Positions 1-28,272 are shown, counted from the stretch's first letter. The stretch is DNA of 64,000 bases from Nanobdellati archaeon (GCA_019429125.1 JAHYJO010000001.1:7088-71087); one strand, 5' to 3'. A program made the numbers and translations. Notes: generated by a model not told the origin, from the sequence alone.

Positions 1-3000
1 TATGCGGTTGGGCCACAAAAGTGGAAATATGGACTTCTTAATAATCCTGCATATAATTCAACAAATTCTACTGAATTTTATTATAATATAACAACTGCAC
101 CGCTTGTGGTTATGCTTGAATCTCCTATAGGAGGTATTACATTTGAGAAAGGAGTGAACAATATTCTTCTTCGTGGTAATGTTAGTGATGATTGTGGTCT
201 TGTTAAAGGCGCTAACGTTGAAATTAATATTGTTAAAGATGAGACGACGTATGCAACGTGTAATCCTGCTGGGGACGAAAATACAGGGTGGTATAATTGT
301 ACAATTGTTAATACCACCCATAATACATGGCCAGTTGGTCTGTATAATATTACAATGAAAGCAGATAAAAAGTATTATAATGATTCTGAAATGTTAGTTG
401 TGGAAAATGCTTTCCGGCTTGTTATAAGACCTATATTGTCAAATCCTACTGCAACATCAATACAGGGTGGAAGTGTAGGTGGTTGGGGTGAGTTATGGGA
501 TTTTACTGTGGATATATCAGATCCAGATGGTGACAGTTCAAATGTATCATTTTGGATAAATCTAACGGGGTCATGGGAATTTATGGATTCAGTTATTTGG
601 GCACAAGGAAATCCTACTATAACTTTTTCAGGTAAGACATTTTCTTGTGCAGATGCGTTGGATCTTGGTGTGAAACAATATAAGTTCAATGTATCTGATG
701 ATTATAATTATACGAGTAATATTACATCAACAATGACAATTGAAAAAGATGATGTTTTTGTAAATCCAACAGCTACTGGAGGTCAGAGTGTTGACAGGAA
801 TGGTACTGTTACAATACTTCTTCAGACACAGATAATGGATATGGATAAAGCATATGCACCTGTAGGGTCTGGTGTGGATGGTATGACTTGGGTTACTGTT
901 AATGGTAGTGATCTTAGCAGTTATGATGGTGGTTATGGATTGCAGACAGATGCAAGTGGATATTTAAATTATAATTTTGATATAAACTGTTCTTATACAA
1001 CAGGTCAGCATGCATGGAAAGGTGGAACTTTTGCTAGTGTATGTTATAAGGACTCTATATCATCTACTATGTACTTTGATTCGTTAGGTAAATTATATAC
1101 TGATATTGAATTACCTGTGAATGGTTCAAATTATGGGACGGGTACACAAATAATAATGAGAGCTAATGTGACAAGTGAATGTGTTAATGAAGGTCTTATT
1201 GATTCTGAAGTGAAAGGGTTTGAATTTAAGAGTCCGTCTTCGTCATGGTATGGATGTTCACCTATAAATGAAGAGGAAGGTCTTGATACAGGATGGTATA
1301 ATTGTACTTGGGATTCAACATTTAAACAGCCCGGTAATTGGACAATAAGGACAAATGCGTCAAATGATACCTATTATACTGCAGTCAATACATGGGTTGA
1401 TTATTTTGAACTTCTTAATAATCCACCTAGTTATTCAGATATGAATGTTACACCAGATGCTGGTGCTTGGGGTACAGTTTATACTTTCAGTGTCAATTTC
1501 ACTGATTCTGATGCGGATACAGTTGATTGCGACCTTTATGTTACAACTGATAATGGTGCTACATGGAAACTCCGAAATTCAACAACACTTACAAGTCCTG
1601 CAGTTTGTAACTTGACTGTATCTGATTTTGATTGTGGGGATATTGGTAATGATAACTTTTTCAAGTTCGGTCTTGATGATGGTTATAATACAATAAATAC
1701 TACAAATATGAGTGGACCAAATATTACAGTTGATAATATTGAGATAATCTATGTTTATGGAAATGATAAAGATGTCAACAGGTCATATGGAATATTACCT
1801 CTTAAAGTTTATGTCAATGATACAACAAAAGGTAGTTTTGTGTCACCTAATGTGCCTGTATATTTCAATATAACAACTGATGGCGTTGCTTATAATTTAG
1901 AGGGTTCAAATGTAACGGTAAATGGTAACTCTACATATTCATTTATACCATCATGTTCATATTATGAAGGTGAACAGACTTGGTATGCTGAAGTGAATGA
2001 TTCTTGTTATATTCCAAAAAATACAACTGAATATAATCTGACAGTCTATGGTACATTAACTAATACACTTGATATACCAAATGGGGTTGAATATTTACCT
2101 AATAATAATATCACACTTCGTGCAAATGTTACAAGTGACTGTCCTGCAGAAGTCATGAATGATACGGATGTAACTTTCAGATATTTCAGGACTGGATATT
2201 CAAATACATGTACTGTTGAAAATGAATCTACAAGCTATTATAATTGTACATTTAATAACACTGGAATGTCACCTGGATATTATGATTTTGAAATGAATTC
2301 ATCAAAATCATTTTATAATACTGATTCAAGAGTATTTTCATATGTATATGGTATTTCATCTTTCTGGCTTGAGACTTTGCCTGTTCTTACAACACCAACT
2401 GTAAGTCCAGGTGTTGGTGGATGGGGGGAAACATTCTATTTCACTACAAATGCAACAGATAGAGATTTGGATACAATGACTGTCAGATTATGGTTGCGAA
2501 AGAAACCAGCCGGAAGTTGGGTTCAGAAGAATATAACAACGGTTCAAGGTATTAATCAGACCGTAAACCTATCTACAAGATTCCCAAGTGGAGGGGATAT
2601 GGGTGACTGGGAATTTAATTTTACAGTTACTGCAGATGATTCTTGGGATGTATATGGGACACAAAATGTATCGTTTACAGTTGAGGCAAATGATGTACGA
2701 ATTGAAATAATTTCTGGAAATGATTCTATTGTCAATAGATCTAGTCTTCCTGGCAACAGTAATCCTAATGTGACTTTTGGTGTGCGTGTCTTTGATGATG
2801 ATCTTAATGCACTCATTCCGTATTCTATAACTACAAGATTTTATGTGACAAAAGACGGTAGTAATTTCACGATATTGGCAACGCCACAAAATGAGACCAG
2901 TGAATTTTACGTCACACTAAATCCCGATTGCAGTTATGGTATAGGTCCTCAGATGTGGAAAGCATCAAGTGTCTTTTCAATGAACAGTTGGTATAAGCGG

Positions 3001-6000
3001 ATAAATACTTCAGATCAATATTTTAACATTACAACGGTTCCTCTGTCTACAGAGATATCTGAACCAGCAGGGATTACAACAGTCCGTGATATGGATAATA
3101 TATTGCTTCGTGCTAATGTAACAGATGAATGTGGTCTTGTAGTAGGTGCTAGTCCTGTAATTGTAGTTGAGAGATTAACAGTACCTTATTTTACTTGCCC
3201 AACAGATGGTTCTTTACAGTATGAAGGAAATGGATATTATAATTGTACAGTTCCGGCTGCATCAATGTCTGGTTGGCCAACAGGAAATTACGATGTCAAG
3301 ATTGATTCTTCAAAAGTATATTATAATTCATCTGAGACAAATATTAAAAATAATGCGTTCCGTCTTGTGACTGTGCCTAAAGTTGATAATACTGTCATAA
3401 CGTCTTTGAGTGCTACTGGTTCATCTGATTTCGGTTGGGGTGAAGACTGGACATTTACAGTTGATGTACTTGATGAAGATAATGATAATGTCAATGTATA
3501 TCTTTGGGCTAACCTTACTGGTAATTGGGAACTTTTGGATTCAACAACATGTACAAATTGTGGTGGAAGTACGCACACAATAGAATTTACAGGTCTTAAA
3601 TTCTTATGTACTCATATAGGTAACCGTGATTTCAAGTTCAATGTGTCTGATGATTATAGTTATACAAATGAGACAGTAGGTACATTTGATATAATAAAAG
3701 ATGATACAGTCACATATTATGGTATGGTTGGTGATTCATCACAGATTGATAGGGAAGGAAATGATGTTGAAATATTTTCTGTAAGAGTACGAGATATTGA
3801 TTTCAATGCTTATGTAGGTACAACAATACCTAATGCTACTGGTAAAATATTTGTGACAACAGATGGTGTAAGTTATGATGCTGGAACACAAAATCAGACA
3901 GATGTTTCTGGATATTTGTATTATACATTTAATCCAGATTGCAATTATCTTGTAGGTGCACAGAAATGGTATGGTGGACCAAGAGGTGATTCATGTTATA
4001 TGGATTCAGATTCATCAATGTTTGATACGACCATAACAGGACAGCTGAAGAGTTCAATTACAAATCCTGCATACAGTTCAAGTGTTCTTGTAGGTGATAT
4101 AGTTAATCTTAATTCAAGTGTATTTGATGAGTGTTTTGTGCCTGTGTCAGGTGTAACTATAACTCATCAGGCAGGTCCATTATCTGTTGACTTTGAAGAC
4201 ATTACACCAGTATCTGATGCAGGTGACGGATATTATAATTCTACTTGGGACACCATGTTCCATCAAGGTGGCAATTGGAGTTTTATGCTAAATGCCAGTA
4301 AGATTAATTATTATAGTAATTCAACAGTGTATGAGGAATGGTTATATCTGGATAATACTCCTCCTGTTGTTGAAAATTTCACTGTATCACCTACTATTGA
4401 AGGTTGGGGTCATGTATACACTTATGATGCACAGATGTACGATATACAACAGGATAATATCACTTGTGATCTTTATGTAAGTACAGATAATGGTGTGTCT
4501 TGGGTATTGAAAAATAGTACATTCATTGAGACTGTTTCAACTTTAGGTGTGGCTAATTGTACATTGTCATTATCTAACTTTGATTGTTCTGAAATTGGTA
4601 CTGATAATCAGTATAAGTTCCAGATAGATGATGGTACAAATGTATTTAATACAAGTTCAATATCTGGACCAAATATTACAAAAGATACGGTGTCTATTGA
4701 TTATGTTTTCGGTAATGATTCAATTGTCAACAGGTCTGGTAGTCAGACTACTTTATTTTCTGCACGAGTTCTTGATTCTGATAAGGGAAGTATACCAGTA
4801 ATGACCGGTTCTTCAGTCACTTTCTGGACAACTTATGATAATGTGGTTTATGATTTAGGATATGTAATATCAACTAATAGTACTGGTTATGCAAATTATA
4901 ATTTCAATCCGGTATGCAATCCTGTAAAGTATGAGGTTGGATTACAATATTGGAGTGCTGGCGTGACTGATTCTTGTTATAGCAGTATCAATACAAGCAG
5001 TAATTATACAACTATAATCTATGGTTCAATGGATAATCAGATATTATTACCTCTTGGAACTAAGTTTATTTCAGGGATAGATAATGTTACAATTAGGTCA
5101 AATGTTACAAGTGATTGCAGTGTCGAGGAGACTATGAATGAAACACTTGTAAATTTCACAATGACTTCACTTTATACCGGGACACCTTACGGTTGTACAA
5201 CTGAAGTGTATAATGAATCAACCGGGTATTATAATTGTACATTTGAGACTGTGGGAAAAGAGCCTCGTGAATATAACATAACTATGAATGCAACAAAAGA
5301 GTATTATATTACTAATATTACAACGATGACATATTTAGCTAGTGTGTCATCATTCCGTATAGAAAATGTTCCTTTCATGACAGCACCTGTTGTAAGTCCT
5401 GGTGTTGGTGGATGGGGTGAAACATTCTTTTTTACTACAAATGTGACTGATGCAGATAATGATAGTATGACTGTCAGATTATGGTTGCGAAAGATTTCGG
5501 GTGGTAGTTGGGTTCAGAAGAATATAACAACGGTTCAAGGTATTAATCAGACTGTTAATCTTTCAACAACATTTGTAAGCGGTAATGATATTGGTGACTG
5601 GGAATTTAATTTCACAGTGACTGCAGATGACTCTTGGGATGTTTATGGAACTGAGAATGTATCATTTATTGTGGAACCAAATGATGTACGGATTGAAATA
5701 ATTTCAGGAAATGATTCAATAGTTAACAGGTCAAGTCTGCCTGGTAACAGCAATCCTAATGTGACTTTTGTCGTAAAGATATATGATGATGACAGAAATG
5801 TTTTAATTAATATTCCGATACAAACACGATTTTATGTTACAAAAGATGGTAGTAATTTTGTGACACTTGGAGATATATCAAACAATAGCGGATATTTCTT
5901 TGCGACTCTTAATCCTGATTGCACATATGCTGTAGGTCCACAGATGTGGAAAGTAGCAAGTGTATTTTCAGGGAGCAGTTGGTATAAATTGGCAAATTCA

Positions 6001-9000
6001 TCAAATCTGAATTTTAACATAACTACAATACCTTTAGCTACGGAACTTTCAGAACCGTTTGGTATTACAAGAGTTCGTAGTGTGGATGATATATTGCTCC
6101 GTGCTAATGTTACAGATGAGTGCGGTCTTGTGTCTGGTGCAAGTCTTGAATTTTTTGTAGACCAGTCAGCAATACCTTATTTTACATGTCCATCAGACAG
6201 TACATTAAATGATGAAAATGATGGGTATTATAATTGCACAATACCTGCTGAATCTACGTCTGGTTGGTCAACAGGGGATTATAATATAAATTATACTGTA
6301 TCAAAAGTGTATTACAATTCATCAGATATTATCATGGAAAATGATGCATTCCGTCTTGTTACAGTTCCTCAAGTAAGCAATCCAGTAATTACTACTTTGA
6401 CTTCTATAGGTTATTCTGATTTTGGATGGGGTGAGGACTGGACATTTGAGGTTGATGTTTTAGATTCTGATCAGGACAATGTCAATGTGTATCTATGGGT
6501 AAACCTTACTGGAGAATGGGAACTTTTGGATTCAACAGTCTGTACAAATTGTGGAACTACACAAACAATCAGTTTTGGAGGTCATGGCTTTTCATGTAGT
6601 AATATAGGTAATCGTGATTTTAAGTTCAATGTGTCTGATGATTATTCATACACGAATTATACTGTTGGTACATTTGACATAATAAAGGATGATACTATAA
6701 CATATTATGGTGGTCTGGGAGATTTATCACAGATAGATAGGGAAGGTAGTGATTTTGAGACTCTTACAGTACAAATATTTGATGCTGATTATAATGATTA
6801 TGTAGGTTCTTCAATCCCTATTGCTACTGGGAAAATATTTGTGACTACAGATGGTGTAAATTATGATATAGGAACATCAAATCAGACAGATGCTTCGGGG
6901 TACCTGTATTATATGTTTAATCCAGATTGCTCATATCTTGTAGGAAATCAAAAGTGGAAAGGTGGGTCAAAAGGTGATGCATGTTATGTAGATTCGGATT
7001 CATCAATGTTTGATATGACTATAACAGGACAGCTGAAGAGTTCAATTACAAATCCCGTATACAGTTCAAGTGTACTTGTGGGAGATAGCATAAATTTAAA
7101 TGCAAGTATATTTGATGAGTGTCTTATACTGGTACCTGGTGTAACTATAACTCATCAGGCGGTTTCACCATCTCTTGAATTTGAAGAGATTTTACCTGTA
7201 TCAGATTCCGGTGTAGGATATTATAATTCTACATTTGATACTATGTTCCATCAAGGTGGCAATTGGAGCTTTATGATAAATTCCAGTAAGGTTAATTATT
7301 ACAGTAATTCAACGTTGTTTTCTAATTGGACATACTTGAATAATACACCACCTACTGTTGAAAACTTTACAGTGTCGCCAGATGAGGATGGTTGGGGGCG
7401 TGTCTACAGTTATGAGGCACAAATCTTTGATACTCAGATGGATAATATAACTTGTGACCTTTATGTAAGCACAAATGGTGGTGCAATTTGGACACTTAAA
7501 AACAGTACATTTATTGAGACTGTTCCAACATCCGGATTTGCAAATTGTATATTATCATTATCTAATTTTGATTGTTCTGAAATTGGTACAGATAATTTGT
7601 ATAAATTCCAGATATTTGATGGTACAAATAAGTTTAACACCAGCGAGATATCTGGACCAAATCTTACAAAAGATACGGTGTCTATTGATTATGTATTCGG
7701 TAATGATTCAATTGTCAACAGGTCTGGTAGTCAGACTACTTTATTTTCTGCACGAGTTCTTGATTCTGATAAGGGAAGTATACCAGTAATGACCGGTTCT
7801 TCAGTCACTTTCTGGACAACTTATGATAATGTGAATTATAATACTGGAAGTGTGATATCAACAAATTCTACAGGTTATGCAACATATCAGTTTAATCCAA
7901 CTTGCAGTCCTGTAAATTATGAGGTTGGTCCACAGTATTGGAAAGCAGGTGTTACTGATTCTTGTTATGCACAGATAAATTTCACTCAAGATAATTATAC
8001 AACAACTGTTATGGGGGATATTATTAATACTATTGAAAATCCATTTTATGGTACAGAATATTTGCGTGGTGAGAATGTAACTGTAAGAAGTATATCTACA
8101 CCAACAATAATGGATGATTGTACTGCGAGTCTTTTAAATATTGATAATAGTATAATATTTTATAATGAGAATGGTGTGGCTAATTATTCCTGTATTACTA
8201 ATGAGGTTGGCGGAGGATATTACGAGTGCATAAGAAATACTACAGATATGGTTGCTAGATGGTATGATACTGAGATGGTATCATGGGAAACATATTATAA
8301 TAACGGGACTGTACTTCTACAAAATCATATATTTGTAAAGACAGCACCTAATATGACTGATGAAACTGCAATTACAAGTGTTGGAGGATGGGGTGAAACA
8401 TTCTATTTCTCTGTCAATGTGACTGATGAGGATTTAGATAATGTTACATTGAATCTGTATATAAAAAATACTGCATCAGGACCATTTGGTATTTGGGGCG
8501 CACCTAAAAACAGCACTATTCTTTATAGTCCTCAAGGAGAATATGCAGTATTGTCATGGAGTGATGCGCCTTATTGTACTATCGGCACTTGGGAATATAA
8601 ATTTGAAGCAATAGATACACATGGAGATACAACATTTACAGATGCACATAATTTCACGATTGAAAAGGATGATGTTGAAGTTCTATATTCTGTGGGTGAT
8701 GGCTCTTATGTTTGGAGGAATGGGTCTGATAGTACAACATTAACATTGGATATTGTTGATTCTGATAGAGGTAACATCTCTGTTGGGACAGGTACTTCTG
8801 CACGGTTCTGGGTGACTACAAATGCAAATGATTCTAGTTCATGGGATCTTGGAAAAGATACGGCAACATTGGAGGGGGCAATAGAATATTACTTTATGAA
8901 TCAGTTCCCTGATGGAGGTCAAAAATGTGATTATACTGTCGGTATCCAGAAATGGAAAGGCGGGACATTAAATGATATCTGTTATAAGGATCAGAATTCG

Positions 9001-12000
9001 ACGGAATATGATTTGTCTGTAAATTCAAGTTTGGTGCCTAACATAACAAATGTATACAGCCAGGGATATTTGAGAGGGGATTATATACCACTTCTTACAT
9101 CTGTAACAGATGATTGTGGTTCTGTTTCGAATGTTACACTATCATATGCTCTTTTGAACATGCCAAACCAGTATGTTTGTAGCAAACAAAGCAATGTGGG
9201 GTGGAATGAGAGTGATGGGGATTATAATTGCACTTGGGATTCTACAAACAAACCATATAAATGGTATAATGTTATTGCAACAGTTTCAAAAGAATTTTTT
9301 GTAACTAATATGACTTCAGGTAATGATAGGTTCTTTTTAGGTGTAACACCACAGCTTGATTCGTTAGCTGTAGCTCCTAAGATTGGTGGTTGGGGAGAAA
9401 ATCATCAGTTTAGTGTAAGGTTAACAAGTTTTGATCTTGCAACAAATAATGTATCATTGTGGAAAAGTTTTGATAATGTGTCTTGGGACCTTGTTAACTG
9501 GCAGACTGTTATTATGCCTATAGGCCAGTGGGTATATTTCAATGAAAGGTTCACATGTAATGATTACCTTACACCACCATCAGGTCTGAATTATTATAAG
9601 ATAATATCTAAAAATGTTTTCGGGTTCAGTACTGAAACGCCAGTATATAATTATACGCTTAATTATGATAATGTTACTTTGAGTATAACTCCTGCAAGCA
9701 ACGATACTGTTCGTCGACTGGGAGTGACAAATGCGTTATTTGAGGCAAGAATATATGATACTGACTATGGTATTTATCAGAATAATACAGATGCTAACAT
9801 ATGGGTCACAAAAGATGGTAGTGTATTTGATTATAATGAGTCCTGTTCATCTCTTGATGGTTATTGCAGAATAAATTATGACCCTCAATGTGATAGTGAT
9901 GCAGGAGTGCAGAAATGGAAGATAGAAGTGTATGATTTATGTTATCAGAATATCAATTCAACAAATGTCACAGTATCTGTAATTGGGCAACTGTACAGTA
10001 ATGTAGCCAGTCCAGAACAAAATGATATCCTTAACTTAAATACGACTATCAACTTAAATACAACTGTCTATGATGAGTGTGGTAATAATATAGTTGATGC
10101 ATCTGTTTATTGGTATAATAGTGTTCCTGTATCTATTGCTTCAGGATATGATACAACCTGGAATGTTCCATTAAGCTATACAAAAGGTCCAGAGAGTATA
10201 ATTACAAATTCAACTAGGCAATATTATGATAATGGTACAAATATGACTGATGTCTATGTGTATGGTTGGAGCATAATATCATCAATGTCACCACTTGACC
10301 TTTCAAGTTATCTTGCAGGATATGATGTGCCTGTACAATGTACTGTGACTGATGCCAATACTACTAGCAACCTTACGAATTATAATGTAAGCTTTTACAA
10401 AAATGATGTGTTCCAGGATTCAAATATGACCGATTCAAACGGGACTGCTGTATGGACTTGGGTTACTGATTTAGAACCTTATGGTTGGTATAACCTTAGT
10501 TGCATGATATCAAATGATGATACTTTGTATTATACTCCTGCAGTGGCTCAGATGAATACTACTGTTAGAGTGAACAGAACATTGATGATACAAAGTATAG
10601 TACTTTCTAATCCCGACATTTATCGGAATGATTCATTTGCACCTTATGATACAAACATAACTGTCAATATATATGATGCACTATTTGGGCCTGCAGATAA
10701 TGCAGATGTATGGTTCTATAATTCAACTGGATTTATAGACAATTGTACAACTGATGTGGCTGGCAATTGTTATATCAGTTATAATGCGCCTGATAATATT
10801 ACACCTCAAGGATATGCGGTCTATGTCAATTCAACAAAAGCTGGGCTTGAAGATTCAATAACTGACAATACAATAATAGGTGTATACGGTATATATTATA
10901 TCAACATTACGGAACCTGATAATGGTAGTTCTTGGAGTAAGGCAATAATATTAAACCTTTCATCGTATATTGAAAATGAGAATGGATATGTTGATACTGC
11001 AACTGTTAATTGGTATATTGATTCTGGATTTGTTGCAACTGGACAAAATACTACATCTCCACTTATTTCACAGTTGCCGGGACCTAAAATATTGCAATCA
11101 AATGCTACACGACCATATTATATTACGGGTACTGATAATATCTTATTGAATATAAATGGTCTTGTTGATGTCATGTGGTGGTATCCTCTTAACGGTTCCA
11201 AACAAGCATATCCTGGGTCTTTTGATGTCCAGTGTCTTGTGAAAGATAACACATCTGGTGTGTCGGTTGTAGGTTATGCTGTGGATTTCTGGTACTGGAA
11301 CGGTTCAGATTATGTTTATAATGGGACCTATACAACAAATGAATTAGGTATTGCTGGTTATACATGGTATCCTGAATCAAAAGGTGTTCTTGATTTCAAG
11401 TGTAATATAACAGATAATGCTACTGTGTTTTATTCGCCAAACATTGGTGACGATATTGCCACAATAATAGTTGAGGATATAAATCCACCTGTTATATCTA
11501 ATGTGAGCATAATTCTAAATAGTACACTTGAAGCAAATCTTAATTATACAAATATAACTGCTGTTGTGATAGATGATGTGTTTGTATATTCAGTTATTGC
11601 GAGCATTACTCTTCCTAACGGTACAATAGTTAACGAAACTATGAGTAATGTATTCAATGATACTTATCGTGTTGAATATTTACCCCCTGTCGGTGGAAAT
11701 TATTCAGTAGATATAGTTGCAAGTGATTCTCCACCTGAAAATAATACCAATATTGTGTATGCTGGAGATTTTTCAGTATGGGGTACGGCGGATATTATTG
11801 GGGAGAGGACAGATGAATATGTAGCATTTGGTATAACTCAAGTATCTGATGAATCATTTGTGTTGACTGTAAATGCAACAAATAATGGTCCTGCAACAGC
11901 TTATGATGTGTCAATAACAGTTTTAGAAGACCCTATCGGTACTGTGACTTATAATACAACAAATTATGAGTGTGGTAATTTGAGTGTAGGGGTAATGTGT

Positions 12001-15000
12001 TCAAGGGATTTCCTTGTGACAGTACCTTCAAAGACTGCTCCGCAACTTATAACGGTATACAGTACAATATGGTGGGATAATCCTGATAAGACACCTAATT
12101 CAACAGTTGGTATTACTTTAATTGATGTTGCATCAAATCCTGTAGTAGATATACTTGAGATATTTATACAAAATCAGACAAAACATGGAGAAACAACAAT
12201 AATAGGAACATTGACTGTAAGTTCAGCAGGAAATGATTATGTAGATAATATTGTATTATCTAAAGTAGGAATTATATTAGATCTTTCGTGTCCATTATGT
12301 AACTTGACAATGTCAAAACAAGTTGAAGAGACATTACCTGCCGGAGAATTTTTCACATCTGTAATATCAATAGATGTTCCATATGGTCAGAGTGCAGGGG
12401 ATTATTGGACATATATATCTGCTAAATCAGATAATGCAGCACAGGATTTGGTTATTGTTAATGCAACTGTACCACTTGATGTCACTTGGGAAAGAGAACC
12501 GTCCACCTTTGGAACGATTCTTGCTCTTGTAAATACAACTACTACTCAAATTGGTGTTATTTCTACTAAGAATAATGGTAATTCTGAACGAAATTTGATT
12601 GTTCAATCTGGTGGTAATGGTTCATTATTTATTACAAAAAGTCCAAACTCATCCTCATTGGGCATTGGTGCTTCAAGAAATGTAACTCTTAATTATTCTA
12701 TTCCTGCGCTAACAACGCAGGGTATGTATTATGTACAGATACACATAAGGGAATCATCAGCTAATCCATCTGATGCAATTACTGATTTCTGGCTCAATGT
12801 GACTGACTTACCTCCTGTAATATCTAATGTGTCTATCAAGCCTCGCGGGTATGAACCCGATGTAGGATATTCAAATATATCTGCTGTGGTGATAGATAAT
12901 GTTTTAGTCTCACATGTATGGTTGAATTCAACAAAGCCAAACGGTACAGATGAGATATATTATTTTACTTTGAATGGAAGTGATGCTTATCTTAATTACA
13001 GTGAGAATGAGACTGGAGTTCATAAGGTTGTTATATGTGCAAATGATTCTGCAAATCTTATCAGTTGCACTATGATTTATGATATTAGTGTTATGGTTAA
13101 TACAACAGTTGTTACAGAAACAAACATAACTAATACAACAATTTATGGTATCATGCTTGATACGGGACTTAATGTATCATTTAATTTCACAACACTTAAT
13201 GATGGGTATTCAAGAGCACTTGATGTAAATACATCTGTTTTGTATCCAGTTTTATGGAATGTGTCACCATCAGAGTTTAATATGGGTGACATAATTTTGA
13301 TGCCTTATCAAGGTGAAGCATTACTTTTAATACCCGCTGATGTTATTGGTGAGTATTATATTAATTTTACATCTAACTGGACTAATTATGACGGTTCAAA
13401 TGATACACTTATGACACCTATAAGGATTGTAATCGGGTCTAATCCTGCACTTAATGTAACTGATATGCCTGCGTCATTTGTGATTGAAAGCGGTAAAACT
13501 CTAAGTACTAATTTGACTTTGAAGTCAATTGGTAATGATATTGCAAAAAGTATAGCGTTTAATTGTACGGAGGGGGTTGTATGTTCTGAGTTTAATGTAT
13601 CTTTCAATCCACTAGTAATAGTAAATTTAACTAAAGGCAACAGTACGAATTTCACAATTAATATATCCGTTCCGCTTGGGTATTTAGCGGGGGTATATGA
13701 TGGTGTATTTACTGTATATGAATCAAAGACAAATTTATCTGTGAATATCACCGTTGTAATTCCTGCTAACTTGACATGGGAACATAATCCTGTCATAATC
13801 TCAAAAAATGTAATTGCAAATAGGACTGGTAATTTTGGTTCTGTCAGAGTGTCCAACATGGGCAATATACCTTTGACAGTTTCGGCAATATCTACAAATA
13901 CAACAATTTTTACAATAAATGAGAGTAGTATTAATTTGCCATTGGGAGATTACTATGATGCCATGATTAATTATAGTGCACCCGAAGTATTCAGCCTTGT
14001 CACATATTCAGCATATTTCAGGACAACTAATATAACAGCTTTACCTTCTGATAGGGAAACATTCTTGAATATAACTATATATCCATTGTATTTAGATATA
14101 ATTACTCCAACAACTGTGGTTCCTAAACTAAATGTCTCAAAAGGCAAAAATATAACTGCAATATTTAATCTTACTTATAGTCTTGTGCCTGTTTCTGAGA
14201 ATGTTACATGGCAGATAAATCTGACAAAGGATAGCACATCTTTTTCAGTAAATATTACACCTGAAAATATTAATTATTCAGCAATATCTGGTCTTTGGAC
14301 AATTAATTTCACCGCACCTGATATCCTTGCAGGAGTTGCTTATGACCTTGTTGCAATTGTATTTGATGAGATAAATAATATTGAGATAATTTCGGTTGAG
14401 AAAAAGGCAATAATTTATACAGATACAATTCCACCACTACTTTTTGTTGATTTATTTTCAAATATAATTAATGGTAGTGTTATACCAATTTATGTAAATA
14501 CAACAGACGTTGGTGGTATGGATTATGTGTCAGTTGAAATAACAACACCAAATGGTACTATTTTTGCATATAATGCAACTCTTTTAGATTCTGTTGGAAA
14601 TGATTATTTCTATAATCTTGACTTTATAGAAACATCAGTTTTGGGTGCTTATCCTGTAGCTATAAGTGCGTATGATCTTTCAAGTAATGTAAATACTACA
14701 AATGTAATATTCAATGCTTATCTACCTTCATATTTCAGAGGTTATTCTTATGATCTTGAAAGTGTGGATAATGAAACAGTAGTCTCTGCAGAATTCAAGT
14801 TGTATAAACATGATGAATCTGTATTGATGCATAATTTTTGGTCAGATAATGTGACTGGTCTTTATAATGAAAGTGTGTATGTCCGGTTATATGATGTCGT
14901 TGTTGACGTATTGAATTTGACTTTAACTTTCGATGATTTCAGTATGCCTCTTGGTGGAATTTTCAATCCATTGGTGTTTGGTGATATACCAATTGCACTT

Positions 15001-17355: not shown

Positions 17356-17392
17356 TATATCTAATGATAAATAGGACTATGATTAAAATATA

Positions 17393-19399
17393 ATGGCAGG
17401 TGATAATGTGACTAAGAAAAAAGGTAATGCTAAAGAAAGTGAATTTATGGGCATGAGCTTGGATGGTCTTCAGGATAAGAAAAAAGAGATTAAGGAATTT
17501 CTTGCATCTTTAGAAAATGATTATCGTAATGCAACTATTTCTGAAAAAAGTTATAAGCATACAAAAGAGGTCAATCTTAAAATGATGGAAGATTTAAAAC
17601 AACAGCTTGCCGATTTTGGCATAACTGATTCTGATGATGATGTCATTACAACTCCTGCAGGTGACGACAAAACAACTATTGGGACTTCTGAGGTAGCTGT
17701 GTCTGCGAGTCCTGTCAGTAATGGGGGGAGCGTTTCTGGTAATAGTGATGTAGCTGATAATGTTTCAGTTGATAATGTGGCAGCTAATAATGTGCCTCTT
17801 AGTTCTGAACCTTATTCACAGAGTACACAGAGTGCTGGAGCTTCAGAGGGATTGAATAGTTCAGATGAATCTGAACATATAATCAATAAAGATACCAAAG
17901 GGTTGTCTTTAGTAGATAAGTTAAAGCAGTATGTGGAATTATCAAATGCGGTCGCTGCTAAAAATACCAACAAATCCGGAAATGTATCCAGCAATCAGCC
18001 AGTTCAATCTGTTGCAGAGACTACACCTCAAGTTAGTCAGGTTCCAGTTGCGCCCGTGCAGAATGTTGAGTTATTGATGCAAAAGTTTTCTGAAAAAGTT
18101 AATGTGGATTTGGAACGTATCAAAGCCAATCTTGATTCCTTTAAAGAGATGCGTGCGTCAACAGATGAACATATGCAGACAGTTACAGAAGGGCTTACCG
18201 AACTTAGGACTACAGTATTTCAGAGAGAGGCGGGAATAAAAGAGCAAGAGATGCGGTTTACAAGAGTTAAAGAGCTTGTGGATGATATTGAACCTGAAAA
18301 GATAAATAAAGAGTTTATGAAACGTGATAAGTTTACATCTGAGATGGAGATACGTATTGAGAAACTTGAAGTCAAGATTGAGGATATCATAAAAACTATA
18401 AAGCATACAGATGGTCTGTTGAAAAGTATGGGAAATCTTGAAAATATAGCAAATATAGACCATAAGATTGCAAATAAAATGGAACATGTAAGTGAGACTG
18501 AAAAATCTATGGTTCATCTTTCTTCAAAAATGGAAAAGATGTTTATGAGTCTAAATGAAAAACTTGAAAATTTTGATGTTTATGAAGCAAGACAGGATAA
18601 TATGAATGAGATAATGAATGATATGCTTAAGAATGTGGATCAGCTTGGTGTCAAATTTGAGAGTTATATCGATAAGAAAGATATGTTCAAAGTTAAAAAC
18701 GATATGGATTCTTTGTCTGAAAAAATTGAGATGATGATGGGTATATTGAAAAAAGCAGTGCCGTTTGCAGAAGCTGAAATTCCAAAAGAACTTCAGGAAC
18801 TTGAAGATCAACGGGAGGATATAGAGAGTCTTCTGTCTACACTTGCGCAGGAACATAAGAAGAAACAGATATCTGATAAGGAGTATATGAATATCAAGAA
18901 GAAAAATGATGTAGCTCTGGATAATATTAAAGTAGAAATAAACAAAATTATGAAAAAAATGATTAAAAACGAATCAAGTAGCAAGTCTTTGTCATCAAAA
19001 CAGACTAAAGATGCAAAAGATAAAGTAGGAGATTCTGCTGTTGAAAAAGTAGGAGATGCTGAAATGTCTGAAACGGTTGAGATTGAGGTTGGTGTAGATA
19101 AAGGTATTACTGATTCAGATGAAATAAAAATTAATGATGATTTAATAGAGGTGGAGGGGAGTCCTAAAGATAATGGTCTTGAGAAAGCAGATGAAAAAGA
19201 ATCGTTCGAGTCTAATAAGTCTGAATCAGTGCAAGATGCTGTCAAGCCTGTTGATAATGGTGCGGGCAAGGTTAAAGAAAATATGAGTGAAAAGATTGAT
19301 GTCAATGATCCTCTTATTATTGAACTTGAGGAATCACTTGCGCAAGGTTTAATATCTCAAGAGACATATGATAAAACAAAAAAATTGATAATAGGTTGA
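17393..19399 (+). CDS. 668-aa cytoplasmic coiled-coil protein, acidic, with an S/T/N-rich low-complexity segment. No TM. Tightly linked between the two giant surface-protein genes.
   Basis: ATG 38 nt after the giant ORF stop. Long E/K-rich heptad-like regions. Stop lies 5 nt before the next gene start. Confidence 0.7.
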   Translation: MAGDNVTKKKGNAKESEFMGMSLDGLQDKKKEIKEFLASLENDYRNATISEKSYKHTKEVNLKMMEDLKQQLADFGITDSDDDVITTPAGDDKTTIGTSEVAVSASPVSNGGSVSGNSDVADNVSVDNVAANNVPLSSEPYSQSTQSAGASEGLNSSDESEHIINKDTKGLSLVDKLKQYVELSNAVAAKNTNKSGNVSSNQPVQSVAETTPQVSQVPVAPVQNVELLMQKFSEKVNVDLERIKANLDSFKEMRASTDEHMQTVTEGLTELRTTVFQREAGIKEQEMRFTRVKELVDDIEPEKINKEFMKRDKFTSEMEIRIEKLEVKIEDIIKTIKHTDGLLKSMGNLENIANIDHKIANKMEHVSETEKSMVHLSSKMEKMFMSLNEKLENFDVYEARQDNMNEIMNDMLKNVDQLGVKFESYIDKKDMFKVKNDMDSLSEKIEMMMGILKKAVPFAEAEIPKELQELEDQREDIESLLSTLAQEHKKKQISDKEYMNIKKKNDVALDNIKVEINKIMKKMIKNESSSKSLSSKQTKDAKDKVGDSAVEKVGDAEMSETVEIEVGVDKGITDSDEIKINDDLIEVEGSPKDNGLEKADEKESFESNKSESVQDAVKPVDNGAGKVKENMSEKIDVNDPLIIELEESLAQGLISQETYDKTKKLIIG

Positions 19400-19404
19400 T
19401 TTGA

Positions 19405-22400
19405 TTGTCGGTAAAAGCTAACAAACAGTGGCATATTTATGTAGTAATTGCAGTGTTAGCTTTAATGTTTTTTTCAAATTCAGTAATGGCATCTTTTGAT
19501 TCTTATTGGTTTGATACGGATTGGCATTTCAGGACGAATTTTACAATAAATAATACGGATTATGATAGGGACTATTGGCCTGTTGAACTTGATATAAATT
19601 TTACAGATATAATGCTTCAATCGGGTAAAAATGGCACATTTGATAATGAGTCAATTAGGGTTATTGAACATGATTTTAGTGGGGCTGTATTGTTTGAACA
19701 TCCTTTTCAGTTTGATAATAAAATTGGGTTTAATGTTAGTACGAATGCGGTAGGAACTATTGTTTTTCTTTTGAATGGGACAACAAATGCTAATCAGATA
19801 AGATATATTTATGTATATTTTGATACTGTCGAAAATACTGTCAAGGTGCCTGTTTCATATTCAACAAATCTTGTGTATTCTTGGGACGGTGAGGAAGCGC
19901 ATGTCAATAATAGTCTGTTTAATATGAAGATTGATACACTTAGGGGTGAAAATACATCAGGTATATATGATATTTATTCGAATAACATAATATTTTCTAC
20001 TTCTTCTACAAATAAAACAAAGGAATATACACAATTTTCAAATGGGACAGATATTTTTTCATTTGATTTTAGAAATAATGCTACATTTTCTGGTGGAAAT
20101 ATAAAAAGAGTTATGGAGCAGACAGGTGTTGAGACTTTATGGAATAATCCTGGTTTAGTTACTGGTTTTGGGTTTATGAAAAAAAGGTATATATTTTATG
20201 AAAATACATCATGGATAAAGATTGAACAAAATTATACAAATGTTGGTGTGTCATCAGTGACTCGAAATTCCACAAGTGCGGGAGCGTTATCTGTGAATGA
20301 TATTTCAACAGATGAATTTAATGGACCATTTAGGTTTGGAGATATGACTAATCCAATGTCTTGGTATGGCGCATCAGATGGTAGTCGTGGTCTTGGTCTG
20401 ATAAATTTTAATTATAGTTCTAATGCAAATTTTTATGTAAAAAATGATACAATTTTAGATCGTATGGGAATTCATCTTGACCCTGTTGTAATTATACCTA
20501 ATGAATCTGTAACTAATACAGTCATAATGCAGTTTAACGGAATTAATTATAATCAGGCAATGCTTGAATCACTTAGGAATCAGATGGCATATCCACCAAT
20601 AATTGTTCTGGAAAATAATCAATTCATTCCTGTGACTATTGTTCCAAAAATAAATTATTCAATCTATAATAGAAATGATTCAGTGCTTATAATTGCAAAT
20701 GTAACTTCAGATAAGTATAATGTTATCACATCAATGAATGCTACAGTTGATATAGGTACTGCATCTACATCTGATGATATTTTGATTAGCCTCTACGATG
20801 ATGGGTTATCTTTACATGGAGATGAGGTTGCTTATGATGGCATTTTTTCTAATATCTTTAATCCCTCTGAGAACAGTATAATAGGGGTATGGGACGTTAC
20901 TGTTCGTGCATTTGACTCTTTTGATGTAGTTCTCAATGAAGTGAATGTGTCGTTTAATGTAAGTGATATGTATAATGTGTCAATAAACATATCAAACCCG
21001 TCAGGTCTCGTTGATAGGGTTATATATGTGATTATAACTGTTCTGAATATAAGGGATGAATATATAGGTGGTGTATCTTTCAATTGTACTTATGGTGCTG
21101 GATTGCTGACAAATATAACAGATTATGATAACGGTACATATATACTTAATTTCACTGCACCGTCAATAACTGGTAATTATATTCTTGGTTGTAATGGTAC
21201 TAAGTTCAATAATATGGGGAATGACTCACAGTTTTTCAATACTGAAACGAGTGAGACAACAATTGCACTTGCGGTATCTCCACAGAATTATACTTCAGAT
21301 AATATTTCTCTATTAGTAGGTGATTATTTTGAAATAAGTGTGAATGCAACAGATGTTGGAGGGGCTAATGCAAAATATGTAAACATATCGTTGTCACTAC
21401 CTGTTAATTTAACTGCTAATTCTACTTTTGAATCTTGTGGTGATGTTTTTATGAATTTATCATGTGTTAAGGATTTCAATATAAGTATAATTAATGGTAC
21501 TGTTTCTGGAAATTATACTATAAATGTAAGTGCTACATGGTTGAACCCAAATCTTCTTACTAATTCCACTAATATTTCATTTATAACGTATGTCTATTCA
21601 AATCCTGTAATTGATATTTTGGGTGGCGGTTTAACAGGGGTTGTACCTGATGGTAAAAATGTAACATTGGGTAGTTTTAATGTGGATTCAATCGGTAATA
21701 GTGATCTTACAAACATAACATTTAATGTATCTGGTATTTCTGATTTTATTGTAATATTTAGTCCCAAAAATATATCATCATTATCTTTTGGGAGTTCACA
21801 GCCAGTCTCTGTTGAAGTTATAGTGCCACAGGATTATGTGTCGGGTAATTATTCAGGCATAATAAATATTAGTTCTGATAATGGTGGATGGAAAACTGTA
21901 GAATTGAACTTGACTGTGCCGGGAACAACTATAATATCATTACATAAAACTCCAGATAATTATACCTCTTCAATAATCTCTTTGTATTCTGGGGATTCAT
22001 TTGATGTGGATGCAATCATGACTAATGATGGTATTTCAGATGCAAAGGATGTAAATATTACATTATCTATGCCTCAGAATCTTAGTGCTAATTCAACATT
22101 TGAGCAATGTGGGCGTGTAAATGATAGTGGTTATTGTACAGAACAGTTTAACATAACAATTAGTGCGTTTACAGTTCCTGGAAATTATACTTTTAACATG
22201 ACATCAACATGGGTCAATCCTGATTTATCAACAGATTCTGTCTTATTGAATTTTACCGTTCAGGTAGTATCTAATCCAATTATTGATGTTATAGGGAACA
22301 TTTCAACCGAACTGCCTGACAATTCATTTGTTGCTGCTGGAAATTTTACTATATATTCAATAGGTAATTATAACCTTACAAACATAACATTTGATGTTAT

Positions 22401-25326: not shown

Positions 25327-25338
25327 TTAGTGTTTTTT

Positions 25339-25683
25339 TCATTGTTTACACAGATTAACAATTGCTAACTTTTTTCTCATCTCAGATTTATATTCTCTTT
25401 TTTCAAAAAACATAATTAAGAATATAAGACACATAAAGATAGTTAATATCAGTATGTTTATAGTATGATTAATAAGGTCATTTATTGTGTGGTATATAGC
25501 ACCTTCGTCTGTGGAACATAATGTTTTTCCGTTCTGCATGGCAAAGGAATACTCGATTGATGAAGTGCCTTCGAAATCGTTGCAGATGTCTGCGTGTATG
25601 GATTCATGAAAATATGTTTGTGTAGAATTGATGAATATGAATATGATGAGTATTACAAGTATCTCTTTTGAAAATTGTTTCAT
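25339..25683 (-). CDS. Small hypothetical membrane protein (114 aa) with N- and C-terminal hydrophobic segments.
   Basis: ORF with two hydrophobic stretches. No recognisable family. Confidence 0.35.
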   Translation of the reverse strand: MKQFSKEILVILIIFIFINSTQTYFHESIHADICNDFEGTSSIEYSFAMQNGKTLCSTDEGAIYHTINDLINHTINILILTIFMCLIFLIMFFEKREYKSEMRKKLAIVNLCKQ

Positions 25684-25756
25684 AAATATCTTTTAATAGT
25701 ATGGTGCTTAAATAGGTGTATGTTTTTTGTATGATTGATAAATCCTATAATTATTT

Positions 25757-26791
25757 TTGTGGATTATTATGTTGTGGAGTCAGATGAGGTTAAGATATTT
25801 TAAAAAACAATTCTGCTTGGGCAGTCTTATTATATATGTTAGTTTTATGGTATGTTTATTCATCTTTACTAATCCAATTTATGCAAAAGAACTTCAGGTT
25901 GGTGTGTCTCCTTTAATGCTTGATCTTGGAACTGTGAAAAAAGGAGAAAGTGTTGTGGGGTCATTTTTTATTGTGACGTCATCACAAGATGATATTATTG
26001 TGAAATTAAAATCATCACGTTCTAATTTTGATTTCTTTAAAAAACCTATAAATATAGATATTGTTAATTATGTGTCTGAAGAAGATAGTTCCGGATGGGT
26101 TTATTTTCCTGAGAATCCATATGTTCTCAAATCTACAGAGTATGTGTTAAATACCAAAGGCGGAACAATATCTGATTGGAAAAATGTTAATTTTGTGTTG
26201 AATGTCCCTGAGGATGCTGAGTCATGCTATCATGCATTTAAGATTGAACCTACACCTTATACAACAAAAGAAGAGGCTAGTTCTGTAAGTATTGTTGCAA
26301 TGGTAACGATTACTGTGAAATTTCAGGTTGCTGGTGGATGTGAGGTCAATGGAAATATATTGGATGTCATGCAGGATACTTCAAGTAAATATATTGATTT
26401 AGGTGTATATTTTAAGAATACAGGTAATGCAACGTTTTCAGCGTATAGTCCTGACGTGATGATATTTTATGAGAATGGCACATTGCTTGATAAGCAACGT
26501 TCGGGATATGCTTATTTTACTCCTGGAGATATTGGTGTGTTGAATGCACGGTTTGATCCAAAAAAGATTGTTCCTGGTAATTATATTGTAAATACTACAG
26601 TATTATATGGTGCTAATACAACATCAAAACAAGTGCCACTTACTATTGAAAGATCAGTGGTTGCAAAAATATCGACAGTAGTTTCAAAGACACCTGATGG
26701 TACTGATAATACTTTTTGGATATTGCTACTTGCAATAATTCTGATAATTGTTGGCGCCTATAAATTCTATAAGGTCGAAGATAAAAGATAA
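25757..26791 (+). CDS. Exported protein (344 aa) with an N-terminal signal anchor and a C-terminal TM (FWILLLAIILIIVGAYKFY). Hypothetical surface protein.
   Basis: ORF with hydrophobic N-terminus, NxS/T sequons and a C-terminal hydrophobic helix followed by a basic tail. Confidence 0.6.
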   Translation: MWIIMLWSQMRLRYFKKQFCLGSLIIYVSFMVCLFIFTNPIYAKELQVGVSPLMLDLGTVKKGESVVGSFFIVTSSQDDIIVKLKSSRSNFDFFKKPINIDIVNYVSEEDSSGWVYFPENPYVLKSTEYVLNTKGGTISDWKNVNFVLNVPEDAESCYHAFKIEPTPYTTKEEASSVSIVAMVTITVKFQVAGGCEVNGNILDVMQDTSSKYIDLGVYFKNTGNATFSAYSPDVMIFYENGTLLDKQRSGYAYFTPGDIGVLNARFDPKKIVPGNYIVNTTVLYGANTTSKQVPLTIERSVVAKISTVVSKTPDGTDNTFWILLLAIILIIVGAYKFYKVEDKR

Positions 26792-26799
26792 ATGCTAAT

Positions 26800-26890
26800 A
26801 GATGTTAATAGATGATAATCTAGAATAATTGATGATAATTGATGATAATTGATGATAATTGATGATAATTGATGATAATTGATGATATAT
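26800..26890. repeat. 10-bp tandem repeat: (gatgataatt) x5 perfect at 26831-26880, plus degenerate flanking copies, about 9 units in all.
   Basis: Directly visible. Starts about 10 nt after the stop of the 25757-26791 gene. Non-coding. Confidence 0.9.
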
Positions 26891-27684: not shown

Positions 27685-27715
27685 TACTTAAAACCAATAA
27701 TATTTTGTGTTCTCT

Positions 27716-28264: not shown

Positions 28265-28272
28265 GGGTGTAG

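Follow-up and report, generated by a model that had tools for sequence, protein, structure and literature searches.

A DPANN archaeal gene for a giant SPEARE-type membrane protein with a three-module super-repeat and a HerA/FtsK-type ATPase

Introduction

What kind of protein is encoded by the repeat array that opens this 64,000-nucleotide stretch of archaeal DNA (the window), and what might that protein do? A preliminary description of the locus spoke of a "megabase-scale protein" with a giant repeat ectodomain. The giant repeat ectodomain, its module layout and its decay near the membrane have held up, but the scale was wrong, as the part of the open reading frame (ORF) in the window is 17.35 kb and encodes 5,784 aa (639 kDa), and both the HerA/FtsK-type ATPase and the membership in the SPEARE family were overlooked. 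Judged from its sequence, the region of bases 1-17355 is the 3' 17.4 kb of a gene for a giant membrane protein of SPEARE type; the organism is a DPANN archaeon, a tiny symbiont. Its repeats are real and its product is a known type of protein; since SPEARE proteins are already known from nanohaloarchaea, the kind of protein encoded by the giant ORF is not new. Here, we describe the architecture, age and relatives of this gene and weigh the possible functions of its product. The features are collected in Table 1.

Table 1. Features of the giant gene and of its surroundings, in window coordinates
Feature	Position	Strand	Remarks
Giant ORF	1..17355	+	at least 5,784 aa, 638.7 kDa, pI 4.2; open at the 5' edge of the window
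Module M1, type A	112..1104	+	aa 38-368; module alignment and identity matrix
Module M2, type B	1105..2070	+	module alignment and identity matrix
Module M3, type C	2071..3045	+	module alignment and identity matrix
Module M4, type A	3046..4056	+	modelled as three Ig-like beta-sandwich domains
Module M5, type B	4057..5040	+	module alignment and identity matrix
Module M6, type C	5041..6036	+	module alignment and identity matrix
Module M7, type A	6037..7044	+	71% aa identity to M4
Module M8, type B	7045..8028	+	77% aa identity to M5
Module M9, diverged, weakly type C	8029..9042	+	
Module M10, most diverged	9043..10005	+	membrane-proximal end of the array
Duplication copy 1	2221..4980	+	only strong DNA-level pair; BLASTN against 5212-7968; lags 2988/2991
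Duplication copy 2	5212..7968	+	BLASTN against 2221-4980
Identical 138-nt tract, copy 1	4708..4845	+	same as 7696-7833; longest exact repeat
Identical 138-nt tract, copy 2	7696..7833	+	same as 4708-4845
Non-repeated ectodomain "stalk"	10006..16131	+	aa 3336-5377 (~2,040 aa)
Region homologous to Ca. Nanohaloarchaeum antarcticus SPEARE	11692..17337	+	aa 3898-5779, equivalent to SPEARE aa ~4085-5931
Single transmembrane helix, WPIVLLLRLFKSWVTYVILLVVLPILYFG...	16132..16242	+	aa 5378-5414; hydropathy scan and sequence
FtsK-HerA-superfamily ATPase, cytoplasmic	16243..17352	+	
668-aa acidic coiled-coil/low-complexity protein gene	17393..19399	+	translation
1,973-aa surface protein gene	19405..25326	+	Pfam and sequence

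Modules and super-repeat

Frame 1 stays open from the first base until a stop codon at 17353-17355. With no stop in bases 1-105, the ORF is already open at position 1, and the N-terminus of the protein is beyond the window and the contig that contains it. The first 3,335 residues of the visible part consist of ten modules of 321-338 aa (~330 aa) that fall into three types: A (M1, M4 and M7), B (M2, M5 and M8) and C (M3, M6 and, weakly, M9). Each is marked by a GWG motif, found at aa 161, 488 (there as AWG), 807, 1145, 1468, 1804, 2142, 2464, 2796 and 3130. Modules of the same type are spaced 980-997 aa apart, and therefore the super-repeat of about 996 codons (2,988 bp) built of ~330-aa modules that had been proposed is real, as a three-module A-B-C order of about 990 codons. 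The expected ~3-kb periodicity is present: self-identity over positions 1-18000 peaks at lags 2988 (0.346) and 2991 (0.338), against a mean of 0.275 (sd 0.017). The array does not end at 8370, as had been thought, but continues to nt 10005.

Module-to-module identity within the array is 24-77%. The predicted decay towards the membrane-proximal end is evident in M9 and M10, which are only 25-32% identical to the other modules. The motifs singled out earlier exist. The Cys of NVTDEC, YYNCT, GWG and C.Y..G.Q.W...CY vary little or not at all from module to module; NAFRLV is confined to type A. The AlphaFold2 model of M4 is all-beta (pLDDT 91.8), and by this confident model each ~330-aa module comprises a set of three beta-sandwich domains of Ig-like type. 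The fold matches Ig, MG, PKD, CARDB and adhesin-extender domains, and no Pfam model describes the tri-domain module.

Two classes of repeat protein invite comparison. In bacterial giant adhesins, the number of repeats determines the reach of the fibre. The module fold of the window protein matches that of such adhesins (1.5-MDa ice-binding MpIBP and RTX extender regions; PDB 4p99, 5irb, 6xi1 and 6xi3), and a fibre of megadalton scale with tens to more than 100 tandem Ig-like domains is a further likeness. The adhesins, however, repeat one nearly identical ~100-aa unit, leave the cell by type I secretion and are held in the outer membrane, whereas the window protein groups its three-domain modules by threes into a super-repeat, has strongly diverged copies and is anchored by a transmembrane (TM) helix and an ATPase. 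This C-terminus and 330-aa units that are 24-77% identical do not fit an adhesin of the RTX/Bap type, which has C-terminal RTX repeats or a type I secretion signal and near-identical ~100-aa tandem units. In the A-band part of titin, Ig and Fn3 domains form super-repeats of 7 and 11 domains. As in the window protein, beta-sandwich domains of different types follow one another in a set order, and this order recurs in tandem; titin is a eukaryotic intracellular muscle protein without homology to the window protein, and the analogy is one of organisation only.

Age of the repeats and the assembly

At the DNA level, units had been put at 85-88% identity, which is too high. The strong pair (positions 2221-4980 and 5212-7968) is 77.6% identical over 2,764 nt (BLASTN, E = 0), or 71-80% per module, and only local windows of 150-300 nt within it attain an identity of 0.87-0.96. 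The first super-repeat (M1-M3) is only ~53% identical to the second in nucleotides and 38-44% in amino acids, so similarity falls towards the start of the window as well. The duplicated copies have a dS of 0.53-0.88 and a dN/dS of 0.27-0.31. The ~2.99-kb duplication is thus the youngest in the array yet old (dS 0.5-0.9) and under purifying selection, and the array is an old expansion maintained by selection. The orthologous copy in L003 is 81% identical to copy 2 and 74% identical to copy 1, which makes copy 2 closer to this orthologue than to copy 1 beside it in the window.

One tract departs from this pattern. The 138-nt exact repeat has a chance expectation of ~4e-13, and its perfect identity, set against orthologues that are merely 73-81% identical, points to recent intragenic gene conversion and hence to copies that still recombine. 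The suggestion of a recombination-prone repeat is thereby upheld for one recent conversion tract, while the copies are otherwise old.

The array had also been expected to be hard to assemble. Contig breaks inside the gene are circumstantial but consistent with this: the window's contig appears to begin inside the giant gene (the locus tag of the next gene is K0B07_00010), and three related contigs end inside it. An ENA scaffold has N-gaps within the gene as well, located in the stalk, outside the 3-kb repeat. Could short-read misassembly have produced the periodicity of 3 kb, or the number of copies? The contig breaks and the exact 138-nt repeat would fit such an artefact, but 22% of sites differ between the copies, whose frames are intact and whose dN/dS is ~0.3, at least five related genomes in independent assemblies are colinear with window positions 5740-23048 and have the same modules, and distant proteins repeat the A-B-C order, so that an artefact is very improbable.

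Stalk, membrane anchor and cytoplasmic ATPase

No internal repeats were found by BLASTP in the stalk, which contains an NPCBM_assoc/NEW3 domain at aa 3951-4015 (Pfam, 45.4 bits; cut-off 24.4) and a Gly-rich linker at aa 5111-5160. The predicted TM helix is followed by KKKK in a Lys/Arg-rich stretch. With its single TM helix near the C-terminus, the bulk of the protein is predicted to be extracytoplasmic. On the N-terminal side of the helix there are 261 N-x-S/T sequons, compared with 94 +/- 8.6 in shuffled sequences, and three in the cytosolic part; the pI is 4.1 for the ectodomain and 9.4 for the cytosolic part. Heavy N-glycosylation of the ectodomain is very probable, given its sequon content. 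The visible 5,377-aa ectodomain contains Ig-like, MG and CARDB-like domains, and no protease, pore-forming or other enzymatic domain was found in it.

The cytoplasmic ATPase has a Walker A motif, GGTGSGKS (nt 16399-16422, aa 5467), and a Walker B motif, LIVYDE (nt 16786-16803, aa 5596), and a helical or coiled-coil C-terminal tail starts at about nt 17146. The domain matches Pfam DUF87 (39.5 bits; cut-off 23.2), and its motor fold is that of the FtsK-HerA ring translocases. The Walker motifs and DUF87 are common to the superfamily (HerA, VirB4, VirD4/TrwB, FtsK and EccC), and in TrwB/VirD4 and FtsK, as in the giant protein, a membrane anchor lies N-terminal to the motor. The giant protein differs from these in that it has no NurA partner nearby, only ~250 residues align structurally, and the motor is joined to a giant glycoprotein ectodomain; its ring and substrate are putative.

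Relation to SPEARE proteins

SPEARE proteins have a signal peptide, Ig-like domains, a TM segment, a cytosolic ATPase and a coiled coil (PMC10266531, PMC6642349), with adhesion-type ectodomain domains that include at least one laminin-G (Hamm 2019). The signal peptide is an N-terminal Sec signal, which a serine-protease head may or may not accompany. Examples are NAR1_1133 of Ca. Nanohaloarchaeum antarcticus (5,998 aa), a protein of Ca. Nanopetramus SG9 (8,553 aa) and SVXNc_0300 (9,409 aa) (PMC6642349, PMC10266531). Against the Ca. Nanohaloarchaeum antarcticus protein, in a sequence obtained by optical character recognition (OCR) from SI Fig. S18 of PMC6642349, window aa 5164-5779 match SPEARE aa 5316-5931 (BLASTP, 33% over 631 aa, E 1.5e-106) and window aa 3898-5074 match SPEARE aa 4085-5231 (26% over 1,215 aa, E 3e-43; phmmer, 5e-50), a colinear homology of ~1,880 aa. 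The likeness extends to a giant N-out ectodomain of tandem beta-sandwiches, a single TM helix near the C-terminus, a cytosolic P-loop ATPase ending in a helical tail, a stalk that contains NPCBM_assoc domains and a DPANN archaeon as the encoding organism. The relative P0170 (5,175 aa) has a signal or TM segment, Peptidase_S8, RCC1, modules, stalk, TM and ATPase, and thus a subtilase at the N-terminus, which the SPEARE concept also includes.

There are also differences. The distal ectodomain of the window protein is made of the tri-domain module in A-B-C order, in contrast to SPEARE, and lacks the Gly-rich repeats seen in the Ca. Nanohaloarchaeum antarcticus sequence as well as the WD40/PQQ propellers that SVXNc_0300 is reported to have (PMC10266531). 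A laminin-G domain was not matched in the visible ectodomain, the N-terminal part lying outside the window. Unlike nanohaloarchaea, the organism is not a salt-in halophile, its cytoplasmic proteins having a pI of 5.3-9.4.

The nearest relatives are mostly labelled Aenigmarchaeota. The C-terminal part has 252 homologues, and 709 protein clusters carry the module. P0157 and P0167 are colinear with the giant protein at 36-42% identity over 4,200-5,400 aa. In related genomes the gene reaches at least 4,262, 7,378 and 9,591 aa, each stopped by the end of a contig; a further copy, inside its contig and apparently complete, has 14,617 aa, and for such relatives "megadalton" is the term that fits. The A-B-C order also occurs in P0155, P0159, P0167 and P0171 and is common to distant family members. 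P0155, P0156, P0163 and P0170 begin with signal-like hydrophobic segments.

Neighbouring genes

Downstream of the giant gene, other genes for anchored surface proteins occupy about 17 kb. The 668-aa product encoded directly downstream has no P-loop and no Pfam match, and its gene is syntenic in L003-L005, L011, L012 and L014-L016. The 1,973-aa protein, also syntenic in relatives, has a signal peptide, NPCBM_assoc and MG2-like domains and a C-terminal TM anchor; its aa 629-839 are 29% identical to aa 3940-4158 of the giant protein.

Proposed function

We infer that the giant protein most likely couples a fibre for attachment to the host with a translocase driven by ATP. To our knowledge, all characterised FtsK-HerA-superfamily motors assemble into rings, and by analogy with these families the ATPase domains would form a membrane-anchored ring. 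The glycosylated beta-sandwich chain would stand out from the small cell by some 100-200 nm or more and attach to the host cell surface. Where the two cells touch, ATP hydrolysis would drive a polymer, either DNA or protein, across the membrane of the symbiont. How far the fibre reaches would depend on the number of modules, which would vary among lineages. As a whole, the explanation by a SPEARE-type fibre, TM helix and ATPase working in this way is probable. Counting against it are the lack of a laminin-G or protease match in the visible part, the coiled-coil protein gene in the place where nanohaloarchaea are reported to have a second VirB4-like ATPase gene, and the absence of recognised secretion or uptake components nearby.

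The strongest competing account, although a good deal less likely, is a passive one, in which the ectodomain serves solely as a glycosylated fibre for attachment or spacing, like bacterial giant repeat adhesins or S-layer-associated fibres, and the ATPase serves its own export, anchoring or turnover and not the transport of a substrate between cells. Generic Ig-like modules with adhesion molecules and adhesin extender repeats as best matches, an ectodomain free of pore-forming or enzymatic domains in its visible part and the adjoining surface protein genes are consistent with it. The ATPase argues against it: it is structurally among the ring translocases, and no other part of the family is as well conserved (55-94% identity, with much more diverged modules). 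Many members with the same ATPase have an ectodomain of only ~200 aa in a total of ~725 aa; as these keep the ATPase without the fibre, its function does not require the giant fibre, which counts against the passive account and also against the coupling proposed above.

For the nanohaloarchaeal giants, a type-IV-secretion-like "straw" has been proposed (PMC10266531), part of a secretion system in which a VirB4/TraG-like ATPase would power the injection of effectors into the host; such a role is unlikely here. Precomputed Pfam matches of homologues do include T4SS-DNA_transf and TrwB_AAD_bind, but the best sequence and fold matches of the motor are to HerA and not to VirB4/VirD4. A PDB profile search with the ATPase domain returned HerA only, PDB sequence searches gave no match to VirB4, TraG or TrwB at E < 1e-3, TraC matched below threshold only, and the resemblance to type IV secretion systems (T4SS) is one of fold alone. 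A second VirB4/TraG-like ATPase gene is reported directly downstream of SPEARE in SVXNc and BNXNv (PMC10266531), whereas the next gene here encodes the coiled-coil protein. Other T4SS components were not detected in the cluster, no further secretion or uptake components were recognised near the giant gene, and the beta-sandwich chain would seem to have no evident lumen.

In the original SPEARE hypothesis, the ectodomain breaches the host envelope and a cytosolic restriction-type enzyme acts on imported DNA (PMC6642349). HerA/FtsK-type motors move DNA, and NCBIfam gives weak matches of the ATPase domain to the DNA-translocating ATPase CedD and to HerA. Uptake with degradation is nevertheless more doubtful still, for no nuclease domain was detected in the cytosolic 370 aa, SPEARE proteins, when re-analysed later, showed no endonuclease domain (PMC10266531), and a NurA-like partner is absent nearby. 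A HerA-based anti-virus defence system is hardly credible, since the matches of PADLOC HerA models to the cytosolic domain (E 1.8e-16) are generic, effector partners of the Sir2, DUF4297 or NurA type are absent among the neighbouring ORFs, and the ATPase is fused to a glycoprotein ectodomain of more than 5,000 aa within a surface-protein cluster.

It is a long shot that the clade encodes the largest archaeal proteins on record, as HerA-type rings in which each subunit carries a glycosylated fibre of several hundred nm made of a previously undescribed tri-domain module, a new cell-to-cell transport machine that would import DNA or other polymers from the host and would differ both from type IV secretion and from crenarchaeal Ced. 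The size in question is that of the relative whose gene table lists 14,617 aa, or ~1.6 MDa if the average residue mass of the window protein is assumed.

Organization of the giant gene

Frame 1 of the + strand is free of stops from base 1 to the stop codon at 17353–17355, which leaves the ORF open at the left edge of the window. Its visible part encodes 5,784 aa (638.7 kDa, pI 4.2), far from the "megabase-scale" protein of the preliminary description. Autocorrelation over 1–18000 yields self-identity peaks at lags of 2988 and 2991 (0.346 and 0.338 versus 0.275 ± 0.017). BLASTN identifies a sole strong pair, 2221–4980 (copy 1) and 5212–7968 (copy 2), with 77.6% identity over 2,764 nt; 160–1784 and 3097–4736 share short weak BLASTN matches only. 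These two methods establish the ~3-kb super-repeat periodicity that had been noticed beforehand, whereas the nucleotide identity of 85–88% claimed between units was overstated. Tandem Repeats Finder reported no repeat in the repeat region because the longest period searched was 500.

At the protein level, ten modules of 321–338 aa (M1–M10) occupy nt 112–10005, confirming the earlier picture of ~330-aa units and carrying the array past 8370, where it had been thought to end. Three module types recur in A-B-C order: A (M1, M4, M7), B (M2, M5, M8), and C (M3, M6, and weakly M9). Amino acid identity within a type is 71% for M4/M7, 77% for M5/M8, and 65% for M3/M6; it is 38–44% between super-repeats 1 and 2 and 24–32% between modules of different types, with M9 and M10 the most diverged. 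Among the motifs that had been ascribed to every module, GWG, the Cys in '..DEC', 'YYNCT', and 'C.Y..G.Q.W...CY' are real, but NAFRLV is restricted to type A. The finding is real, and the locus illustrates hierarchical repetition well. No significant Pfam or NCBIfam match was obtained for aa 1–3400, where sub-threshold BNR and L24e matches were treated as noise.

Stalk, membrane anchor, and cytosolic domain

C-terminal to M10 lies a stalk of ~2,040 aa, which carries NPCBM_assoc/NEW3 domains and a Gly-rich linker (aa 5111–5160) and in which BLASTP detected no internal repeats. One hydrophobic helix (aa 5378–5414) is followed by 'RKAYLSYLDKKKKGAR', and the final, cytosolic 370 aa contain a Walker A motif, GGTGSGKS, at aa 5467 and a Walker B motif, LIVYDE, at aa 5596. 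The ectodomain (window 1–16131) has 261 N-x-S/T sequons versus 94 ± 8.6 in composition-matched shuffles, a nearly three-fold enrichment, and the cytosolic part (window 16243–17352) has almost none (3). This distribution is consistent with a predicted N-out topology and with heavy archaeal N-glycosylation, likewise predicted.

History of the repeat

In codon alignments, the young pair (copies 1 and 2) gives dS of 0.53–0.88 and dN/dS of 0.27–0.31, and both copies are, judged at the codon level, under purifying selection. The copy-2 region of L003, an orthologous locus in another species, is 81% identical to copy 2 of the window and 74% to copy 1; since it is closer to copy 2, the duplication is older than the split of the two species. 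Within the otherwise ~77%-identical copies, one tract of 138 nt (4708–4845 = 7696–7833) is perfectly identical, against a chance expectation of ~4e-13. Because the orthologous stretch in four relatives reaches just 73–81% identity to the window, the perfect tract indicates, from sequence comparison, recent intragenic gene conversion. Unequal exchange at this tract would gain or lose one super-repeat and would remain in frame, as the lag of 2,988 equals 996 × 3.

Relatives, gene length, and contig ends

The C-terminal 534 aa have at least 252 homologues, the majority labelled Ca. Aenigmarchaeota. Complete homologues of the C-terminal part on long contigs are ~725 aa long, and the closest homologues are 'partial'. 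The word-indexed protein search listed nothing above ~930 aa and overlooked giant relatives that an exhaustive search recovered, and its counts underestimate the family; with the module profile it returned 12 short fragments only. The distal part is nevertheless a widespread module without a Pfam or NCBIfam model and with a conserved A-B-C super-repeat: an exhaustive HMM search with the same profile retrieved 709 protein clusters (298 at E ≤ 1e-30), including N-terminal fragments with signal peptides and C-terminal fragments that run colinear with the window for 4,200–5,400 aa at 36–42% identity, and the A-B-C order is seen again in other proteins of the family. One apparently complete homologue, P0170 (5,175 aa), is composed of a signal/TM segment, a Peptidase_S8 subtilase, an RCC1-like propeller, six modules, the stalk, a TM segment, and the ATPase; its N-terminal Peptidase_S8 means that the family includes protease-headed forms.

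Orthologous loci were taken from species-representative genomes, and L003–L007 and L010 were read with a 10-kb flank. All are colinear with the window, L003, L004, and L005 having 81%, 78%, and 73% DNA identity to window 5740–23048. In each colinear orthologue the ORF is open at the 10-kb flank limit, at least four modules are present, and 2,449 aa separate the last module from the C-terminus, as in the window.

The 668-aa protein encoded downstream of the giant gene is 100% identical to K0B07_00010 [DPANN group archaeon], on a contig of 154,064 nt. Judging from this locus tag, the giant gene would be the first of its contig and is probably truncated there. Exact look-ups of window proteins and of P0139 and P0140, which are 100% identical, retrieved no contig, and a 50-nt stretch from the first bases of the window had no exact match in metagenome contigs. 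Long relatives in other genomes are listed below; for L015 the last 9,957 nt were read, and this relative is apparently complete. Gene length in the family thus reaches at least 14.6 kaa. Because such genes repeatedly terminate contigs, short-read MAGs underestimate the size and frequency of giant genes. The most interesting by-products of the analysis are this relative of 14,617 aa, the wide extent of the module family, and the recurrent truncation at contig ends.

Giant-gene relatives, their positions, and their lengths
Feature	Location	Length	Source
Giant-gene relative	WTCB01000067.1, from base 3 of the contig	at least 7,378 aa	gene table
Giant-gene relative	WTCA01000030.1, runs to contig end	at least 9,591 aa	gene table
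Giant-gene relative	JAIYFB010000049.1	at least 4,262 aa	gene table
Giant-gene relative (L015)	JBFOMW010000281.1, ~89,257–133,110, inside a 147,853-nt contig	14,617 aa	gene table

Two further loci are interrupted. In L002 (ENA ZHAN22-2 scaffold_1528), the orthologous gene contains 100-N gaps at 5646–5745 and 9801–9900, corresponding to window ~10880–11176 and ~15154–15482 in the stalk; they fall outside the 3-kb repeat and were dropped as proof that this repeat breaks assemblies. In L001 (JGI 3300050342 Ga0527077_0445, 24252–45148), a related giant gene of more than 10,000 codons in total is broken into at least seven consecutive frames (pieces of 5,752, 137, 282, 356, 298, 2,030, and 813 aa, followed by a DUF87 piece), reflecting either a pseudogene or indel errors of long-read assembly.

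Homology to SPEARE proteins

DPANN archaea need physical contact with host cells, and giant surface proteins of the SPEARE type are the leading candidates for their attachment and exchange. To our knowledge, such giants have been described almost exclusively from nanohaloarchaea. Hamm et al. 2019 (PMC6642349) reported nanohaloarchaeal SPEAREs of up to 8,553 aa, which are mostly extracytoplasmic, have a TM helix close to the C-terminal end, and share a conserved cytoplasmic domain; the study also pointed out that Aenigmarchaeota, Woesearchaeota, and Micrarchaeota have similar cytoplasmic sequences. In cultured nanohaloarchaea, this domain was re-read as a VirB4/TraG-like ATPase, and proteins of 8,880 and 9,409 aa were described with ~75 Ig-like domains, a TM helix, the ATPase, and a coiled coil, the latter protein being the largest of any cultivated archaeon (Front. 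Microbiol. 2023, PMC10266531); the L015 relative exceeds it. A giant-gene survey (bioRxiv 10.1101/2023.11.21.568195) found archaeal proteins above 10,000 aa to be rare and mostly from Asgard archaea, and an Aenigmarchaeota genomics paper (PMC8407114) makes no mention of such giant proteins.

The SPEARE sequence of Ca. Nanohaloarchaeum antarcticus was taken from SI Fig. S18 of PMC6642349. Window aa 5164–5779 align with SPEARE aa 5316–5931 at 33% identity (E 1.5e-106), and aa 3898–5074 align with 4085–5231 (E 3e-43; phmmer 5e-50). The window protein is thus a SPEARE homologue over its last ~1,880 aa. It adds a member to a family already published and does not represent a new kind of element. RLG14629.1, named by Hamm et al., was not found among the cluster members of the homologues or in the PMC6642349 supplement.

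Unlike in the SPEARE, the distal part of the window protein is made of a different repeat unit, and its visible part has no laminin-G domain. The next gene in nanohaloarchaeal SPEARE loci is reported to encode a second ATPase, whereas here it encodes a coiled-coil protein, and a second-ATPase assignment for this 668-aa gene was rejected. A further difference is that the proteome is not acidic, and the organism is therefore not a salt-in halophile. The same machine, with homologous stalk and ATPase, is conserved in a non-halophilic Aenigmarchaeota-like lineage.

Proposed mechanism and alternatives

The sequences establish the anatomy, topology prediction, fold classes, SPEARE homology, cross-genome conservation, and variable length of the protein; the mechanism proposed here draws on the behaviour of FtsK-HerA-superfamily motors and giant Ig-repeat adhesins. 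By analogy with these, the cytosolic domains most likely assemble into a ring anchored in the membrane; the chain of glycosylated beta-sandwich domains would extend outward and bind the host, and ATP hydrolysis would power polymer transport at the contact site. At an assumed ~4 nm per domain, the visible part, with ~30 domains from the ten modules and further ones in the stalk, would be well over 100 nm long. The alternatives to such a contact-site transporter are a passive fibre, a T4SS-like injector, a device for DNA uptake or degradation, and an assembly artefact. A reading as a defence system was rejected.

Surrounding genes

The window has a G+C content of ~34% and carries cellular genes, including an A/V-type ATP synthase operon, NrdD/NrdG, TctA, an ABC exporter, malic enzyme, and one tRNA-Ser. 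The ~19 kb that follow the giant gene (17393–36405) encode predicted envelope-associated proteins only. Besides the 668-aa coiled-coil protein and one of 1,973 aa, there is a series of ORFs of 185–943 aa whose products have a signal peptide, a beta-rich ectodomain, and a TM anchor at the C-terminus. Synteny of the 668-aa and 1,973-aa genes is kept in all relatives examined. A perfect (AATATG) × 6.7 microsatellite at 31576–31646 encodes (NM)n in the 943-aa surface protein, within its cytoplasmic tail, and may be prone to slippage. Directly 3' of the stop of a 344-aa ORF, 9.6 copies of a 10-bp unit (ATGATAATTG) lie at 26792–26887, where the intergenic sequence is AT-rich (G+C 28% in 26001–28000). 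The genes for A/V-type ATPase subunits D, B, A, C/AC39, E, and I lie on the - strand (43134–57991) and are split by unrelated + strand genes for a HAD hydrolase, NAD kinase, and malic enzyme.
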